64,000 nt of DNA. Source: Clostridia bacterium (GTDB taxonomy: Bacteria; Bacillota; Clostridia; Oscillospirales; CAG-382). The translations under genes and the position numbers were made by a program. Shown piece after piece: positions 6,505 to 38,188 of this stretch. The stretch is taken from contig JAFSCS010000001.1 of NCBI GenBank assembly GCA_017436675.1, positions 9,472 through 73,471 of the forward strand, written 5' to 3'. The notes below the pieces were generated by a model, which saw only the letters and a list, made by a program, of their open reading frames with translations, did not search any database and was not told the DNA's origin. The number at the start of each line of letters is the position of its first letter. The stretch's first letter is position 1.

Positions 6505-9500
6505 TTATCTTTTTCTTTTGAGCCCAACAAGAGCGGTTCCGCTTATGATCAAGAGGATCGACCACCACAAAATTCCGCTTCCCTCACCCGTAGGTGGCGT
6601 TTCGGGGATTTCGGATGTCTCGGGGATTTCGGATGTCTCGGGGGCTTCGGATGTCTCGGGAACTTCGGATGTTTCGGGAACTTCGGATGTTTCGGGGATT
6701 TCGGATGTCTCGGGAACTTCGGATGTCTCGGGGACTTCGGATGTTTCCTTATCCTTGAACGTCACTTCGACAGTCACGTTTTTATCCGTTTGCTCATAAG
6801 TATACGTACCGTCGCCGTTGTCTTTCACGGGGATAACGTTGCCGTCCTCATCCTTGACGATGACCTCGTCTATCTCTTTATCAGAGTCGGGAGTAACTGT
6901 TATCGTGACCTCGTCGCCCGACATGGGATCGTCTTTATCAACGTCGACCGTGCCGCCGCTGACGGTGGGCAAGGTTACAACGTAGCTTCTTTCCGTGACG
7001 TTAAGCAAAATGAGGTCATTTGCCGAAAAATCGTTGTCGCTCTCCAAGCATACACCAATATTTGTGACGTCAGCATTAAGTCCCGCACCTTCCAGAAGCG
7101 CCATCAGTTGTCGATATAACGCCAAGTCGACCGTAATACTGTTGGTAGTGTCGTTCGTAAAATGAATGAAATTTTTTGCAACAGTGCCGTTCGAGTTCAT
7201 AAATACAACCGCCGCTTTTTCACCGCTTAGCTTTCTGCCGTTAGCGGTGATGATCAAGCTATGCTCTTCGTCGATATAGAACGTATTTGTCTCGGAGTCA
7301 TAAGCAGGGCTGTCGGAATTATAGATCACCTCTTCGATCCTCGGGAGTTCCTTTTCGAGCTCGACTTGAAGAACTCCATCTTCCCCAATATTTCCGTCAA
7401 AGGTTATAGTTCCGTCCTCGTTGATAGTGAGCTTCAGTGCTTCAGAAGCAAGATATCCCTCGGGTGCGGATTCATTATGAAGTGTATACTCACCGCTTCC
7501 GATATTCAACACAACGTATACCTCATCTTCGGTCATCCATTCCTCGACGACGTCACCGTTCACGTCACGAAGCTGTATTACTGCATCGGCAAGCTCTTTG
7601 CCTGATACTTTATCTATCACCGTAACACATACAAAATGGCGATTTCGGGCTTCGATATGCACGGGGCCATCCTCATCCTCGATCCATATATCGCCATAGG
7701 AATCTTCCACTACAACGTCGTCCTCAAGCATATTCTCGTCAATATCGATTTCATAGCAAATAATATCTTCGTACTGAGCACCCTCAATATCAAGCGTACC
7801 GCCGAAAATGCGAAGTATATTGCCCCAAATGCCCGCGCCGCCTGCATCGATGAAAATAACGCCGCCGTAAACTGTCATTTCTTCCACGCAGTAAATACCA
7901 TCATAATTACCATCGTCGGCGGATGCCATTATCGTTATGTAACCGTCACAGATCAAAATGTTTCCCATAACGTCAATACCGAAATAATCGGACTCTATCT
8001 TCAAAGTGCCACCGTATATTTCGAGGTCGCCATCAATGTTGAAACCGTCCTCACCTGCATACACCTTTATTGAAGGATTGAAGATCGTCAAGCTTTCGTT
8101 AATATCTAAACCGGTGTCCGCGGAATATATGATCAACTCACCGCTGTGTATCAATACGTCGCCGCTATCCGCATCAATGCCATCGTCACCGATATTTTGT
8201 TGCTCGTTGCCTATCAACAAAGTACCGTTTTTCATAATAATGTCGCCGTCTTGGGAATGGATACCGTCGTTATCCGCAACGATCAAAAGACTGCCGTCGC
8301 CGCAGATAGTAATACCATTCTCGATAGCGATGCCGTCACGTTGTATTTCCGTATTATCAGCAGTGTTGGTAAGGCTATTCTCACCAACAAGCTTCAAGGT
8401 TATATCAACGGTAGCATAGACAGAAGCAGTATACGTATAAAAAGGATCCTTTTTCCATTCCACGCCATCACCGCTATATACGAAATCGTTCAGCTCCAAG
8501 ACGCCGTCCTTGTAATATGCGTAACCGCCCTCGGGACGAGATTCGGTGACGTTTTTGTTTGTATCGATATACTGACCATCCCTCAGACCGATATTACCCA
8601 CGTATACGTCATACGTTTCTTCTTGTTTTAATTCGCAAAGCTCGCAAACACCTTCTTCATCAAAGGTATGTGCTTCATATATTGTGTGTCCGCAAACATT
8701 GCATCCGAACTTGTGATTCACCAGCGTGGCACTGATAAAATACGTATGCTCATGAGGTTCCTTATTATACTCCTGCCCACAGAAGCACTTGTCCCAGTGG
8801 TCTGTCTCATCCCACGCAAAATAATACCTTGGATCACAATTCTCGGTTATTTCTTCTCCGCACTCTAAACAAACGCCTGTATGGGTGCCATCCCCATTGG
8901 GAACAGGGGCGTATATGTTGTGGTCGCAAAGGTTTTGACCGCAATGATCACAGAGATAGTCCGAGTCATCGTCTATACACTTTTCTCGAAGATGAGTCAG
9001 ACATTCGTCACAAACGTGGTCGTCGTTTTCATCAAGACAGAGCCAATACATTAAAGCACCGCATACTTCACAAAGATGGTCTTCGATCTCACCATCGAAG
9101 CAAAGCTCTGTCATTCTATAGTGGCAATCGTCACAAATATGGTCTCCGTTATCTCCGTCACGACACATTTGTTCATTACAAATATCGCAGATCTCATCGT
9201 TGTCGCTGTCTGTATGTCTTTCCACTTCCTGATATCCGCATCCACAGTTTCTGTAGTGCTTACCACCGACATCCGGGAGCCATTCATTCTCATCATGAGG
9301 CATGACCGCCGCCTTGTAGCCACAACCCTTCTCACAAGCTGTCCAATGCTCGTTCTCATCCATTCCCCAAACAAGATCGTGGGATTCGATTATCGTCTCG
9401 CCACAATCGGCACAAGTACCAATATGCTGAGCGGGATTCTCGGTGTTAACGATAAAGCTGATGCTCGGGTGGGTACAAGTGAGCTCTTCAGCTATAGCGG

Positions 9501-13065: not shown

Positions 13066-13445
13066 AAAAAAAGCGAGGAAGATAGCGAAGTGCCCTTAAG
13101 GACACTTCGCATCGATATAAATCCCTAACGGGATTTTCGATATGTTGCTATCGCAACTCGATATGCTTCGCTCGATATGTTTGCTTCGCAAACAAGGGAT
13201 TTATATCATATCGAAACCGTCCGCAAGGAAGGTTATATCGAATTTGCCGTAAGGCAAATATATCGAGCCGAGCCAAGCGAGGCATATCGACAAATAGCAT
13301 CTGTGGACACAGATGCAGTGCTTGTCAAGAAAAGAGGACATAGAACGTAAAAACGCTCTATGTCCTTTTCCTGTCGGTAGATATCATATTCTAATGAATC
13401 TAAAACTGTCCTCAAGAGTACAGCCCAATCCTCGCTTTTTATTTT
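13066..13445. repeat. Foldback 'hairpin-chain' intergenic element, copy A (TCGATAT/ATATCGA scaffold) inside a split terminator-like inverted repeat
   Basis: The core at 13085-13316 holds TCGATAT at 13112, 13137, 13158 and 13172, and its complement ATATCGA at 13208, 13235, 13260 and 13284. Each 7-mer is separated by a short GC-rich hairpin. The outer repeat is A7-GCGAGGA (13066-13079) paired with TCCTCGC-T5 (13429-13440). Confidence 0.8.
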
Positions 13446-14531: not shown

Positions 14532-14816
14532 TTAATTTCTTAATTCGTGTTGGAAATGCGGAGGGTACACCATACCCGTGCCCCACGGGATCTCGTCTTT
14601 TGTATAGAACTTAGTTTTGCCATTTTCTATTTTAGCATATGACTCAGAGCCATCCTTTTCGTTACGGTTGATGCATTCGAGCAGGTTGCTTTCGTTATCG
14701 TATACGTTCTTTGAGTAATGGTCGCCCGTGATAACGATCTCGTTATATCCTTCCAAGCGGTCGTTTTCTTCGTTCGGAGAACGGTAACCTCCTCGAAGGA
14801 TTCCGATATCAGCCAT
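14532..14816 (-). CDS. Hypothetical protein (94 aa)
   Basis: The ORF is in operon context between the SDR and DUF2961 genes. No recognisable motif. Confidence 0.35.
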   Translation of the reverse strand: MADIGILRGGYRSPNEENDRLEGYNEIVITGDHYSKNVYDNESNLLECINRNEKDGSESYAKIENGKTKFYTKDEIPWGTGMVYPPHFQHELRN

Positions 14817-14923
14817 ATCTCATGCGGTCCAAGCTCTTCGTTATGATAAATACACGTTGAGCCGTTTTTATAGCGACAATGACGATCGCGGCCAAAAAAA
14901 CCAAGATCTATTTCATACCGATC

Positions 14924-21348: not shown

Positions 21349-21423
21349 TGGAGCTGGTGAGGGGATTTGAACCCCTGGCCTATTGATTACGAATCAATTG
21401 CGCTACCACTGCGCCACACCAGC
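21349..21423 (-). tRNA. tRNA-Thr (anticodon CGU), CCA encoded
   Basis: Manual cloverleaf fold: acceptor GCTGGTG/CACCAGC, D stem GCGC/GCGC, anticodon stem ATTGA/TCAAT with loop TTCGTAA, T arm AGGGG-TTCAAAT-CCCCT, 3' TCCA; 75 nt. Confidence 0.95.
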
Positions 21424-34255: not shown

Positions 34256-35110
34256 TCAGAAAAGTCTGATCTTTTTTGCGATCGTCTCACCGTCGAATCT
34301 GATCACACTGTATGCGCCGTCAAATTCCGCCTCGACAAGATGGCCGTCGATGTTGGCTTGGAGCGTGTGCTGTTGTTCGATGATCCCCTCGAGCTCCGCA
34401 TACACGTCTCCGTTGATAACGAGCTCGTTGGTATGCTTCACTCTTCTGTAGCATATATCGTATTTGAGCATTCTTGCTTCAAGCAAGATCCTATTCTTGA
34501 CCTCGGTGTCGGCTTTCCTTATTATTTCGGAATCCTTTATCTCCTCGGTCGGTTCAGCAACGTTCTCCGAACCGAGCTCTGCCACCGTTTCTTCGACGGG
34601 CGGAAGCTTTTTCAGCTTTGAATTTGCATTTATGCCCAAGAATAAATAGTAGAGCACCCAAGCGTGAAATAAGATATCAAGCACAGACTCGAAAGCAAAT
34701 TCGCCGATAACGATCATACAAACGGTGTCGATAACAAACATCACGAGTGCGAAGATGATCCACCCAATGCGATGCTTTTTCGAGAAGAACCACGCCGCGA
34801 GATAGAGCAAAACTATCACTATTGAGATCGCGAGAAGGATCACAAAAAACGAGCTGTCGAGGAAATAGATCTGATCGGGTTGATATTGATCCTCGGGAAG
34901 ATACCCGCACGCCACCCAGCCGAATCCTGTCAGATAATAGGGCAAAAAAGCGGAAAAGAGAAAATAGCTGTCCGAGTTAGTCATGATCAGAACCATATTT
35001 ACTGCCGTTGCTATGACCAAGACAAGCAGATTTAATCTTGAGGTATTATACTTTTGTTCGAGCACCTCGCGTTGCGAGACCGAGGTGTTTTTTGAAATCA
35101 GCTTTGACAT
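34256..35110 (-). CDS. Hypothetical membrane protein (about 4 TM helices plus a C-terminal soluble domain)
   Basis: 284-aa ORF with clear hydrophobic helices. I recognise no family. Confidence 0.55.
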   Translation of the reverse strand: MSKLISKNTSVSQREVLEQKYNTSRLNLLVLVIATAVNMVLIMTNSDSYFLFSAFLPYYLTGFGWVACGYLPEDQYQPDQIYFLDSSFFVILLAISIVIVLLYLAAWFFSKKHRIGWIIFALVMFVIDTVCMIVIGEFAFESVLDILFHAWVLYYLFLGINANSKLKKLPPVEETVAELGSENVAEPTEEIKDSEIIRKADTEVKNRILLEARMLKYDICYRRVKHTNELVINGDVYAELEGIIEQQHTLQANIDGHLVEAEFDGAYSVIRFDGETIAKKIRLF

Positions 35111-35176
35111 ATTAGCTCCTTTTTCAAATTGTTTTTTTCAGTATATCACATATTTCTGCAATTGTAAAGATAAATC

Positions 35177-35583
35177 AAAAAAAGCAGAGAGCTTTAGCGT
35201 GTTATCCTTAACGGAGAACACGCATCGAGATAAATCCCTTGCGGGATTTTCGATATACGCCTGCGGCGTTCGATATGTGCTGACGCACTCGATATGTTTG
35301 CTATGCAAACGAGGGATTTATCTCATATCGAATTGTCGTGGAGCGACAATATATCGAGCTTGAGCGCAGTGAAAGCATATCGAGTCAACGAAGTTGACAT
35401 ATCGACAGAAGAAAAAAGAGCACGAATAGAAGGATTTATTTCCTTTTACTCTTGCTCTTTCTGCTTGTTATAAGGGTTTGGGCTTAGCCCATTTGCATTT
35501 GACTCGTCAAAGGTGATGCTCGCACTTAGTGGTATTATTATAATTCTCCGCTAAGAACAACACGATTTGAGCTCTCTGCTTTT
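35177..35583. repeat. Foldback 'hairpin-chain' intergenic element, copy C (same family as copy A) inside a split terminator
   Basis: The core at 35197-35406 holds ATCGAGAT at 35224 and TCGATAT at 35250, 35270 and 35289. ATATCGA occurs at 35325, 35351, 35377 and 35399. The shared scaffold is AAATCCC-loop-GGGATTT and GGGATTTAT..CATATCGAA. The outer perfect 10-bp inverted repeat is A7-GCAGAGAGCT (35177-35193) paired with AGCTCTCTGC-T4 (35570-35583). Confidence 0.8.
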
Positions 35584-35590
35584 CTGTCTG

Positions 35591-38188
35591 TTATTTAATA
35601 TTAACTGTTACCTTTGCTTCGCCCGTGCGTATGGATGAGCCGATAATCACTGTAAAGCTATCTTCGCCGACAAAGCCGTCGATCGGGTAATATTCATATA
35701 CACCGTTTTCGATCTCCTTGACGGAGCCGTATTTGGGAGCGACGTTGATGGCGCAGCCCGACAGCATTCCGCTTTCTGTCTCGAGATTGATCGTGAGCGT
35801 TTCTCCCGCCTTACCCTCAAAGCTATCAGTTTTGAGCTTTGGTGCATCAAGCGTCAATTTGCCTTTAGCGTAGAGATAGGTATCGTCATAGATCGAATGG
35901 ATCACAGGATCGGTGGATTTATAAGCAGAATAATATACTCCGGGGCCGCCGTCTTGATAATACATCTTGATGGAGTTCATATAACCCGTTTCCACGCCGA
36001 CACGAAGATAGGTGCGATATCTTTCGAGGTATTCGCCCTTATCGAATGCATCACCGCTGATCTCGATCTCAACGCCCAAGCCAAGCTGTTTGCTGAGTGT
36101 CGCATTATCATATACGCGGTTTGCAGTAGCGTCCTCATGGAACATATAGTTCGGTTGCATACAAGCTGCATCGAAGCCATACGATTTCCAATCACGAAAG
36201 CCCGGTGATTGATAATAGGGGATCCAGATGAAGAGATATCCGAGAGAATGGAGGTAATCAGCGGTAAATTTCAAAAGCTCACCTTCTTGGGGGTCACCCG
36301 TTTCGATAGCTTCGTGATACCAATAGAAGCCGTCAAGACGGAGGTTATCGTATCCGCCCGCTTCATAACGAGCGATAAGGCGGTCGATCCACCATTTTAT
36401 TACCTTTTTTCTATCCTCAATATTATTAAAATCTTCGTTCACTCCGTCGCCGTCAACGTCGCCGAAGTTTTTGTCGCCGTGTACTGTCGAGAATATCGAG
36501 AAGTATATCGGCATCGTTGTGTCCGTTCCGAGAGCAGCATCCATCTCGTCAACTGCAAGTGAAAGTCCTTCAACGTTATTATCCTCATAGAAGAGGTCAT
36601 CCTCAAACGCCAACCAGTCGCTCTTATTAGCAGGCGCAGCGGGATTATAATAAAGTCTTCCGCCCGACGGACATACTGTCATACACGGCAAGAAAAGGAA
36701 CGAATCGAAGAAGGTATCAACGATGTTGCCGTCTTTATCCATATATGCTACGTAGGGGAGGTATTCTTCTTTTGTATTCAAGCCCGTTGCGGGGTTTTCA
36801 CATTTGAAGGTATAGGAGAGCATCAGGTTTTGTGCGCCCTTCAAAACGTCTGATGAGAGATACTCGTTCGGGTATTTTATAATCAAATCAGAAAGTTCGA
36901 TATCTTTTGCATTTTCGACATTCTTTTTGCCGAACACTTCTATCTCATCTATCCAAACGTGACTTCCAACACTAAACTCGACTTTAACAAATCTCGCTTT
37001 TGTCGCATCAAATTCAGCAACGTAATTCACTCTTCCCGCATCATTTGAGGTCGTGGGGATGCCTCTGTCGATCACGCCCCAGCTTTTTCCGTCCATAGAG
37101 CCATAAACGGTTACGAGTGTTGAAGCCTCGATACCTGCTGAACCATGGAAATATCCTATTGTTACCTTTGATACTGCGCTGATCTTATCAAGATCAAAAA
37201 TAACTTCTCTGCTTTCAGAACGCGAAAAATGGAAATATTCACCATTACCGTAATCGGAATCTGCTGAAGCTTTTTTGCCGTTAGTGAGAAGTGGGCTTGT
37301 GATTGGTGAATTGTAATAAGTCGTTTGGTATACTGTGTCGAGAATAACGCCTGCATAGATACGATATGATTTTCCGAGTACGAGGTTCTTGACGTCGTTA
37401 TAGTCGCTTTCGCTTGAGCTCCAATAGATATCCTCCTTGACCTCGGGAAGAGCGGGGCTCTTATAGTATTCGGGTGTCGTTCCGACATCCTCGTCCTTCG
37501 GCTTATCCTTATATTTATATACGCAAAACTCATCAACGTAGAGCCAGATAGACGTCAACGCTTCCTTCGGAACACTCGCTCTGACGTATCTTGCATCGAC
37601 GCCGCTTTGCAGCTTCAAGTCAAACAATATATTCGTATTATCGGCAGGGTTCGCTGTGCGATACACCTTTCCGAGCTCGGTGAAGTTTACTCCGTCTGTC
37701 GAAATGGAATATACAACGTATTTCGGGAGTATAGCCGTCATCGACTTCGCGCTTACCACACTCAATCCGATGTCGCAGATCTCGCTCGTTACCTCGCCGA
37801 GATCAAGCGTTATATCAACGCCCTTTCTTCCGACGAATGCGATCGAGCAAAGCGTTCCCTCATAAGTGCCGCCGGTCATAAATACGCCGTCGGTGAGCTT
37901 CGTTCCGTTTTCGTCGGGGAGTCCGTCGTAGATCTCTCTTGACGTGGTATACGGTTTACCTGATGAAATAACGTAACGTTCCTTGTCAGTACGATCTATC
38001 TCATATTTATACAATGCGTTGAGCTCATCGACCGTTGGAGCTTTCGTACTCGTGCTTTCATCGATGCTTTCCTCCAAGCTAACGTCCGCGCTCACTTCTC
38101 CGTTGCTCTCTTCGCCCGTCGGTGTACAAGCGAAAAGCGTCGGCAACAGCAGTGATGCAAGAAGGACCAAAACAATTAATCTTTTCAT
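35591..38188 (-). CDS. Lipoprotein with discoidin-like (F5/8 type C) domains and a DUF4855-like C-terminal region
   Basis: Lipobox 'PTLFAC' with an acidic linker. 'DTFFDSFLFLPC...', 'LRLDGFYWYHE' and 'GYLFIWIPYYQSPGFRDW' match my recollection of DUF4855. 865 aa. Confidence 0.55.
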   Translation of the reverse strand: MKRLIVLVLLASLLLPTLFACTPTGEESNGEVSADVSLEESIDESTSTKAPTVDELNALYKYEIDRTDKERYVISSGKPYTTSREIYDGLPDENGTKLTDGVFMTGGTYEGTLCSIAFVGRKGVDITLDLGEVTSEICDIGLSVVSAKSMTAILPKYVVYSISTDGVNFTELGKVYRTANPADNTNILFDLKLQSGVDARYVRASVPKEALTSIWLYVDEFCVYKYKDKPKDEDVGTTPEYYKSPALPEVKEDIYWSSSESDYNDVKNLVLGKSYRIYAGVILDTVYQTTYYNSPITSPLLTNGKKASADSDYGNGEYFHFSRSESREVIFDLDKISAVSKVTIGYFHGSAGIEASTLVTVYGSMDGKSWGVIDRGIPTTSNDAGRVNYVAEFDATKARFVKVEFSVGSHVWIDEIEVFGKKNVENAKDIELSDLIIKYPNEYLSSDVLKGAQNLMLSYTFKCENPATGLNTKEEYLPYVAYMDKDGNIVDTFFDSFLFLPCMTVCPSGGRLYYNPAAPANKSDWLAFEDDLFYEDNNVEGLSLAVDEMDAALGTDTTMPIYFSIFSTVHGDKNFGDVDGDGVNEDFNNIEDRKKVIKWWIDRLIARYEAGGYDNLRLDGFYWYHEAIETGDPQEGELLKFTADYLHSLGYLFIWIPYYQSPGFRDWKSYGFDAACMQPNYMFHEDATANRVYDNATLSKQLGLGVEIEISGDAFDKGEYLERYRTYLRVGVETGYMNSIKMYYQDGGPGVYYSAYKSTDPVIHSIYDDTYLYAKGKLTLDAPKLKTDSFEGKAGETLTINLETESGMLSGCAINVAPKYGSVKEIENGVYEYYPIDGFVGEDSFTVIIGSSIRTGEAKVTVNIK

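Follow-up and report, generated by a model that had tools for sequence, protein, structure and literature searches.

In a 64,000-nucleotide (nt) stretch of DNA from a Clostridia bacterium (Oscillospirales, CAG-382; GenBank assembly GCA_017436675.1, contig JAFSCS010000001.1, forward-strand positions 9,472 to 73,471), hereafter called the window, the intrinsic terminator of a gene for an 865-amino-acid (aa) protein is split by 376 nt of non-coding sequence, which we refer to as copy C. We consider it likely (probability about 0.75) that copy C is a non-autonomous mobile element lodged in the loop of this terminator. It belongs to a family, built of short hairpins strung between copies of the heptamer TCGATAT and its reverse complement ATATCGA, that is multi-copy and dispersed and enters terminator loops with a target duplication of 0 or 1 nt. 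A further member in the window, copy A, could be compared with its empty site. The features concerned, in window positions, are the following.

35591 to 38188, minus strand: gene for the 865-aa DUF4855 / F5-F8-type-C protein, stop codon at 35591-35593
35570 to 35583: host DNA, 3' arm of the terminator AGCTCTCTGC (35570-35579) and T4 (35580-35583)
35194 to 35569, plus strand: copy C, the inserted non-coding element of 376 nt, with limits taken from the arms and by analogy with the breakpoints of copy A
35177 to 35193: host DNA, A7 (35177-35183) and 5' arm of the terminator GCAGAGAGCT (35184-35193)
13083 to 13428, plus strand: copy A, 346 nt, in the loop of a bidirectional terminator between convergent MFS and GH172 genes
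13066 to 13079 and 13429 to 13435: the split terminator of copy A, AAAAAAAGCGAGGA (13066-13079)-AGA on the left and TCCTCGC (13429-13435) followed by TTTTT on the right

The evidence for insertion comes foremost from copy A. Two contigs (L194 and L195) encode a GH172 protein identical to that of the window, with flanks 97.5 to 98.9% identical, and carry at this position a 54-nt gap with an intact terminator, AAAAAAAGCGAGGA-AGA-TCCTCGCTTTTT (-16.3 kcal/mol; empty-site sequence, AAAAAAAGCGAGGAAGATCCTCGCTTTTT). Alignment of the window to these contigs breaks exactly at 13083|13428, the element being missing between AGA and TCCTCGC, and in the window and three other contigs 346 extra bases lie between these same two motifs. 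The target duplication is 0 or 1 nt, depending on a single ambiguous T. Copy A is proven to be an insert in a host terminator, and strains differ in its presence.

The bracket around copy C is built in the same manner. The gap holding copy C measures 480 nt and lies between two minus-strand genes, and the right arm AGCTCTCTGC begins 11 nt past the stop codon of the 865-aa gene. The arms make a GC-rich stem of 10 bp with T4 behind it, as in an intrinsic terminator, and fold at -21.2 kcal/mol when joined via an arbitrary 3-nt placeholder loop. The bracket is the intrinsic terminator of the 865-aa gene, host DNA cut by the 376-nt insert at 35194-35569. By analogy with copy A, copy C would itself be an insertion whose limits are those of its arms. 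Inverted arms with an A-run and a T-run were present around the element in 11 of the 12 copies scored, and in two further copies by eye; the mean arm score was 14.0, compared with 8.4 ± 1.5 when each left flank was set against the right flank of another copy. Because the arm sequences are unique in each copy while the insert stays conserved, we take the element to be the insertion and the bracket to be the host. The original prediction, made from the letters of this locus, had described the bracket as a canonical terminator if the insert were removed, and had made its case dependent on the flanking inverted repeat recurring at other copies. Both points were borne out, by the generality of the split-arm layout across the family and the empty site at copy A, and its coordinates for A7, arms, T4, hairpins, heptamers, centre and a minus-strand TATAAT all agreed with the sequence.

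A scan with a 19-nt centre motif against one genome per species returned at least 119 loci, nearly all of them in metagenome-assembled genomes (MAGs) of gut or rumen Clostridia (among the matches listed, Oscillospiraceae, Christensenellaceae, Ruminococcus, Faecousia and others). Several MAGs carry more than one copy, with at least 4 in CAZBQN01 and 2 in the window. Four left and four right heptamers were the commonest arrangement (45 of the 104 copies listed in a strict count, and 46 of 47 in a length-matched set); in variant copies one array was absent or the units were fewer. Matches to TCGATAT in the window numbered 55, against 19 ± 4 expected, with the surplus confined to two clusters, and the long motifs occurred nowhere in the window but at copies A (13.1 kb) and C (35.2 kb). 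As with miniature inverted-repeat transposable elements (MITEs), the family has many dispersed copies whose ends are conserved between unrelated flanks; its terminal inverted repeats are imperfect, and copy A shows a presence/absence polymorphism with exact limits. The direct target-site duplication of such elements was not found.

The internal parts of copy C, and the second flanking gene, are as follows.

35194 to 35224, plus strand: left end with hairpin P0, GCGTGTT/AACACGC (35197-35223), loop ATCCTTAACGGAG; imperfect inverted repeat of the right end
35225 to 35312, plus strand: left array, heptamer TCGAGAT at 35225 and TCGATAT at 35250, 35270 and 35289
35232-35249, 35257-35269, 35277-35288 and 35296-35310, plus strand: left hairpins L1, L2, L3 and L4, supported by covariation, loop type c(TNC)g
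35313 to 35324, plus strand: centre GGGATTTATCTC, complementary to 35227-35238 (GAGATAAATCCC)
35325 to 35405, plus strand: right array, ATATCGA at 35325, 35351, 35377 and 35399, supported by covariation
35332-35350, 35358-35376 and 35384-35398, plus strand: right hairpins R1, R2 (with tandem G.A) and R3, loops c(GNA)g
35416 to 35459, no strand assigned: long hairpin T1, followed by U6 on the minus strand and by UUUCUGCUU on the plus strand, terminator-like both ways
35460 to 35569, plus strand: tail and right end, conserved in 17 copies from different MAGs
35479-35491 and 35495-35515: tail hairpins, TGGGC-TTA-GCCCA and GCATTTGAC..GTCAAAGGTG
35544 to 35569: right-end repeat TTCTCCGCTAAGAACAACACGATTTG
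34256 to 35110, minus strand: gene for a 284-aa protein without a family match

The left end matched the reverse complement of 35544-35569 at 19 of 23 bases by inspection, and the two ends pair with each other in the minus-strand fold; at another locus (L061) the right end repeats P0 exactly, in inverted form. Hairpin L1 (AAATCCC-TTGC-GGGATTT, 35232-35249) competes with a 12-bp long-range helix between the centre and 35227-35238, and R3 (35384-35398) reads GTCAAC-GAA-GTTGAC. T1 has a folding energy of -24 kcal/mol on either strand, its U6 lies on the minus strand, which is that of the 865-aa gene, and it is kept, with G.U on the plus strand, across 15 tails; a hairpin stands at this position, right after the last heptamer, in nearly all solo copies and is a textbook terminator in some subfamilies. 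Against shuffled sequence, the fold of the copy C region had z-scores of -8.6 (plus strand) and -11.4 (minus strand), and copies A and C together span -8.6 to -13. Distances from heptamer to heptamer ranged from 14 to 27 nt.

The variable hairpins were compared in 47 distinct cores (alignment A2), on a model in which one long-range helix accompanies four local hairpins. Standard pairs filled 98.3% of cells, compared with 81.3% when partners were shuffled, and cells with changes on both sides numbered 236 versus 70 in shuffles, with 0 of 500 shuffles matching the observed value. Upon sliding the partners by 1 to 3 columns, pairing fell to 24 to 52%. At many positions the pair came in three or four types (CG 15 / AU 14 / GC 12, for instance). 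In a structure-blind, end-anchored test, in which the k-th base after one heptamer was set against the k-th base before the next, 88 to 100% were paired (43 to 85% in controls), and the stems abutted the heptamers with zero spare nucleotides. The 307 distinct spacers folded at -4.1 (left) and -4.6 (right) kcal/mol, compared with -0.7 and -1.0 kcal/mol after shuffling. In the long-range helix, the pair 35229/35322 covaried across distinct copies (G-C 51, T-A 44, A-T 4, with 1 exception), Helix 1 was paired in 99.8% of cells, and the helix was retained with different sequence in the PF05635-linked arrays and the Gut-1 seed, both described below. These data support selection acting on the pairing of the variable hairpins and not on their sequence, which the original prediction had read from the compensatory changes between copies A and C and which alignment of more copies upheld. 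Two of its details needed amendment. Some of the hairpin pairs that it had contrasted between copies A and C are not positional homologues, since TTTGCC/GGCAAA is the second right hairpin of copy A and TTGTCG/CGACAA the first of copy C, which leaves the conclusion unaffected. The right array has its four ATATCGA copies, and of the TCGATAT repeats on the left three are exact, the fourth being the conserved variant TCGAGAT.

Two candidate interactions between the halves were rejected. Kissing loops between left and right hairpins would show as complementary loop pairs, of which there were 15 within copies and 26 ± 4 when halves were mixed; for a simple foldback of left on right hairpins, the longest match was 5.4 nt within copies, compared with a control value of 5.9 nt. 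A strict requirement for left heptamers to pair with right ones has the predominance of the 4+4 arrangement in its favor, together with the complementarity that three related families keep between their two heptamers (TCGATAT/ATATCGA, GTGAAAT/ATTTCAC and GTGATAT/ATATCAC); it is countered by a hybrid element at locus L084, whose heptamers are GTGAAAT (left) and ATATCGA (right), and by copies with unequal heptamer numbers.

The two arrays are mirror images in their fine structure as well. Most right-array loops were triloops with a closing C-G pair (c(GAA)g 23, c(AAA)g 14, c(GTA)g 13, c(GCA)g 9), and left-array loops were the reverse complements of such loops (c(TTC)g 11, c(TGAC)g 7, c(TTT)g 6 and others). 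The purine fraction of the loops was 0.75 in the right and 0.36 in the left array. Internal mismatches on the right were G.A (23 tandem G.A/A.G in distinct spacers) and G.T, and those on the left were C.A in 13 cases versus G.T in 2. This symmetry exceeds what pairing alone demands, and it does not arise from pairing between the halves, because loop-loop and hairpin-hairpin complementarity within copies did not exceed that between copies. Most simply, a single type of unit would serve both arrays, with its plus-strand form in the right half and its minus-strand form in the left. Such mirrored strand use would be expected if a symmetric protein complex handled the two ends of a DNA element as single-stranded or cruciform DNA. 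Loops of the c(GNA)g type, such as d(GCGAAGC), form exceptionally stable DNA mini-hairpins.

At Rfam's curated (gathering) thresholds nothing was found in the element. The relaxed scan gave, below the gathering score, only Gut-1 (RF01706) in addition to chance matches: positions 35223-35300 (plus strand) scored 22.2 bits over model positions 1-77 (E = 0.025 to 0.06), short of the threshold of 50. Gut-1 was published as an orphan non-coding RNA, with hairpins separated by GUGAAAU linkers, from human-gut metagenomes only (Weinberg et al. 2010, PMC2864571), and we found no later account of it in the papers searched. The element at L084 (20-207, minus strand) joins the two motifs: its left array is bona fide Gut-1 with GTGAAAT linkers (77.6 bits), and its AAATCCC hairpin, GGGATTTAT centre and ATATCGA right array align with copy C. 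The Gut-1 seed itself includes members with a GUGAUAU left array and an AUAUCAC right array, in which the 5' segment is again complementary to the centre. Copy C also shares with Gut-1 at least 3 consecutive hairpins, a conserved 7-nt linker and stem covariation; the linker itself differs. The L084 hybrid and the two-array architecture of the Gut-1 seed show that the TCGATAT family shares descent with Gut-1. In one locus (L038) two Gut-1 matches (831-906, plus, and 2150-2227, minus), inverted and about 1.2 kb apart, enclose a gene for a membrane protein and a second TCGATAT element.

A protein gene recurs beside the arrays. About 10 nt past the last ATATCGAC, 6 of the 119 loci listed (about 5%; L019, L051, L076, L078, L097 and L112) have a ribosome-binding site and an open reading frame (ORF) of about 120 aa of PF05635/TIGR02436, the "23S rRNA intervening sequence protein" family of four-helix bundles, which is related to Avd of diversity-generating retroelements and whose nearest solved structure is 2RLD. 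No PF05635 gene was present elsewhere in those loci, and none in the window. Close homologues in other metagenomes (P0064, P0073, P0009, P0039 and P0040) were all preceded by 4+4 or 4+5 TCGATAT/ATATCGA arrays (contigs L121-L140 and L201-L203), and the arrays linked to them carry a different centre helix. The PF05635 protein may be the family's own protein partner, judging from this linkage. PF05635 genes have been reported wedged between cas genes, which fits a self-inserting cassette; the protein had no match among the PADLOC defense models. Gene callers often stretched these ORFs upstream into the array (calls of 163 to 219 aa). The unit of array and PF05635 gene was often found just downstream of a gene for a RumA-like TRAM / tRNA_U5-meth_tr m5U methyltransferase (L121, L201, L202, L203, L076 and L078), with the P0 hairpin formed partly by the last codons of the methyltransferase gene (..HVETIVCLRKQ*), and in L203 a gene with an HNH domain follows the PF05635 gene.

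Several observations weigh against copy C being a mobile element of the kind proposed. No empty site for copy C was found among 42 metagenome matches to its arms spaced 0 to 30 nt apart, each of them an unrelated terminator palindrome whose flanks showed no homology. For the 284-aa neighbor, a look-up returned one long contig, in which the site was occupied by the element, and short contigs that break within the element, a feature that in itself speaks for a dispersed repeat. Many of these (L184-L191) end 109 to 139 nt upstream of the 284-aa gene, within the left part of copy C; short-read assemblies break at this repeat. In the absence of a target-site duplication, polymorphism alone does not separate insertion from precise excision. 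No transposase or recombinase recurred near copies upon ORF clustering over the at least 119 loci, and no autonomous relative with a transposase was seen there, the PF05635 gene being the only one to recur. The phage and plasmid collections searched gave no match to the element, and a phage or plasmid origin was rejected as a candidate, the sole viral match being a chance one in a coding region. For c(GNA)g loops, a role as DNA mini-hairpins is putative, drawn from the general behavior of d(GCGAAGC)-type molecules, which it would fit. Finally, there are hints of RNA. In most subfamilies a terminator stands immediately behind the right array, which suggests a plus-strand transcript; wobble pairs in T1 and the tail are G.U on the plus strand; and the arrays, whenever a PF05635 gene is present, lie co-oriented and directly upstream as its 5' leader. 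Weinberg et al. (2010; PMC2864571) classed the Gut-1 motif as RNA. That the element has an RNA role besides mobility is possible, at somewhat less than even odds.

These hints are also what recommends the strongest rival, in which copy C would be a small structured RNA gene of the Gut-1 class, running on the plus strand from P0 to T1 with the bracket as its closing helix, and serving, for example, to bind or titrate the PF05635 protein. The weak full-length Gut-1 match and the homology through L084 agree with it, as does the alternative, switch-like pairing of AAATCCC with two GGGATTT copies. We nevertheless regard it as unlikely. The arms of the bracket are unique to each copy and form an intact host terminator at the empty site, and so are not part of such an RNA; the promoter scan detected no plus-strand promoter in copy C, and no co-oriented gene lies upstream; the element has no orientation bias relative to flanking genes; and the loops and mismatches of the left array look selected on the opposite strand. 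Much less probable is that proteins bind a fixed DNA array (of iteron, centromere or operator type), its heptamers being recognized as duplex and its hairpins being mere spacers: such an array would account for heptamers that are invariant, opposite in orientation in the two halves and complementary in the three related families, but mere spacers would not retain pairing through compensatory change, heptamer spacing varies as given above, the element is polymorphic and dispersed, and the window holds no partner gene. The weakest rival, for which we see very little chance, is the small RNA of about 120 nt suggested by the original prediction, which would run on the minus strand from TATAAT (35542-35537) to a T6 terminator at about 35412; the TATAAT and the hairpin with U6 on that strand do exist, but the former is unique to copy C (the other 14 tails have a different AT-rich sequence at that place), belongs to no -35/-10 pair in the promoter scan, and lies in a tail whose wobble pairs, like those of T1, are G.U when read on the plus strand and would turn into A.C mismatches on the minus strand, while the hairpin with T6 is T1, better explained as a replacement terminator that stops read-through from the 865-aa gene.

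If copy C is a non-autonomous mobile element, the units of hairpin plus heptamer would be the cis sites for its transposition. These units would probably be recognized as folded DNA, single-stranded or cruciform, with the two halves using opposite strands, and the target would be recognized as a hairpin rather than via its sequence, with the mobilizing enzyme acting in trans. T1 would take over termination once the host hairpin is split; such a replacement would limit the cost of insertion and shield the promoter of the 284-aa gene, which the promoter scan placed at 35168-35140 (TTTACA-17-TATACT), from read-through. More speculatively, and rather doubtfully, the TCGATAT and Gut-1 arrays might be the cis sites of an undescribed class of mobile elements that enter hairpin loops with PF05635 as dedicated partner. 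On that equally tentative footing, the class would enter terminators here and rRNA helices in the case of the 23S intervening sequences, through folded single-stranded or cruciform DNA or an RNA intermediate, and leave no target duplication.

Described in 2010, Gut-1 has remained an orphan "RNA motif", and PF05635 is a very large family with no known function outside diversity-generating retroelements; the more speculative proposal, if true, would give a function to the orphan motif and to the very large PF05635/TIGR02436 family. The present locus and its relatives suggest that the Gut-1 motif is half of a mobile element, that this element enters terminator loops precisely (with a duplication of 0 or 1 nt) and brings its own terminator, and that the arrays are a fixed upstream partner of one PF05635 clade. 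They would offer a testable system for structure-directed DNA integration, and they call for caution in annotation, as the element is not simply part of the regulation of the flanking genes. Among the papers searched, none has two or more of five heptamer sequences together, and of the few that came up for insertion in terminator loops none describes such an element; mobility, terminator-loop targeting, mirrored strand use and the PF05635 link appear not to have been described before.

Some further sequences were noted along the way. A mechanical ORF of 126 aa (34983-35363, plus strand) runs from the region of the 284-aa gene across the left half of copy C and is almost certainly not a gene, though it could be misannotated as one. 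A second insert of about 45 nt (GGGGTTCCCCGAAGCGAAG..GAGCTTTGGGGGTTC) was seen, outside the window, in hairpin loops of the element or between T1 and tail (L012:7203, L023:6429, L026:2734, L079:3619 and L114:553), and may be another sequence that lands in hairpin loops. Near copies in L030, L040, L083, L092 and L103 there are REP-like palindromes (GTAGGGGCG...CGCCCCTAC) of another intergenic repeat family. At 14631-14860 of the window, within a minus-strand ORF of 94 aa, a presence/absence difference of 230 nt relative to L194/L195 is bounded by the short direct repeats GCC[A/G]TTTT and looks like a slippage deletion, not a mobile element. At curated thresholds Rfam matched a single feature of the window, a tRNA gene (21352-21423, minus strand, 75.8 bits).

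Among known systems, arrays of the CRISPR, TIGR and type III toxin-antitoxin kinds were considered and rejected: here the variable parts are self-complementary hairpins and only the 7-mer is constant, the arrays are inverted, no nuclease or toxin gene is adjacent, and PF05635, as noted, has no PADLOC match. Bacterial repeats of the MITE/REPIN type (BOX, RUP, Correia, REP/REPIN) are short, non-coding, multi-copy, structured and modular and are mobilized in trans. The present family resembles them in being short, intergenic, non-coding, multi-copy, highly structured and modular, with internal units that vary in number and ends that form inverted repeats. It differs in that it makes no target-site duplication and has the loop of a terminator hairpin as its target, in that its body is composed of two mirrored arrays of heptamer-separated mini-hairpins, and in that no cognate transposase or RAYT was found near the copies.

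Palindrome-associated elements derived from IS200/IS605 transpose as single-stranded DNA by means of a Y1 HUH transposase and insert 3' of a fixed tetra- or pentanucleotide. They too make no target duplication and have hairpins near both ends, and the conservation of structure over sequence in our family suggests a single-stranded DNA substrate for it as well. In contrast, the bases before the left end vary here (AAGA, GCTT, GTTT, GAGT and others), so that no fixed target is apparent; the end hairpins of IS200/IS605 lie on the same strand, whereas the halves here are mirrored; and no TnpA gene was found near the copies. The heptamers (xxG-AxAT) presumably resemble the nick sites of rolling-circle HUH enzymes (CTTG/ATA), which we take as a lead only.

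From Gut-1 as described, copy C differs in its linker (UCGAUAU instead of GUGAAAU or GUGAUAU), and the published description is of a left array only, in which mobility, terminator-loop site and protein link were not noted. The two have in common consecutive short hairpins abutting conserved 7-nt linkers, a 5' segment that pairs either with its neighbor or with the distal centre, the mirrored right array (AUAUCAC in the seed) and an origin in gut Clostridia. The 23S rRNA intervening sequences with a PF05635 ORF are insertions in apical hairpin loops whose ends extend the host stem. They differ from the present family in that the host hairpin is an rRNA helix and not a terminator, and in that the window copies have no ORF and the PF05635 gene of related loci follows the arrays instead of being enclosed. 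They share with it the insertion in an apical loop, the pairing of the ends that lengthens the host stem, and the same family of four-helix-bundle proteins.

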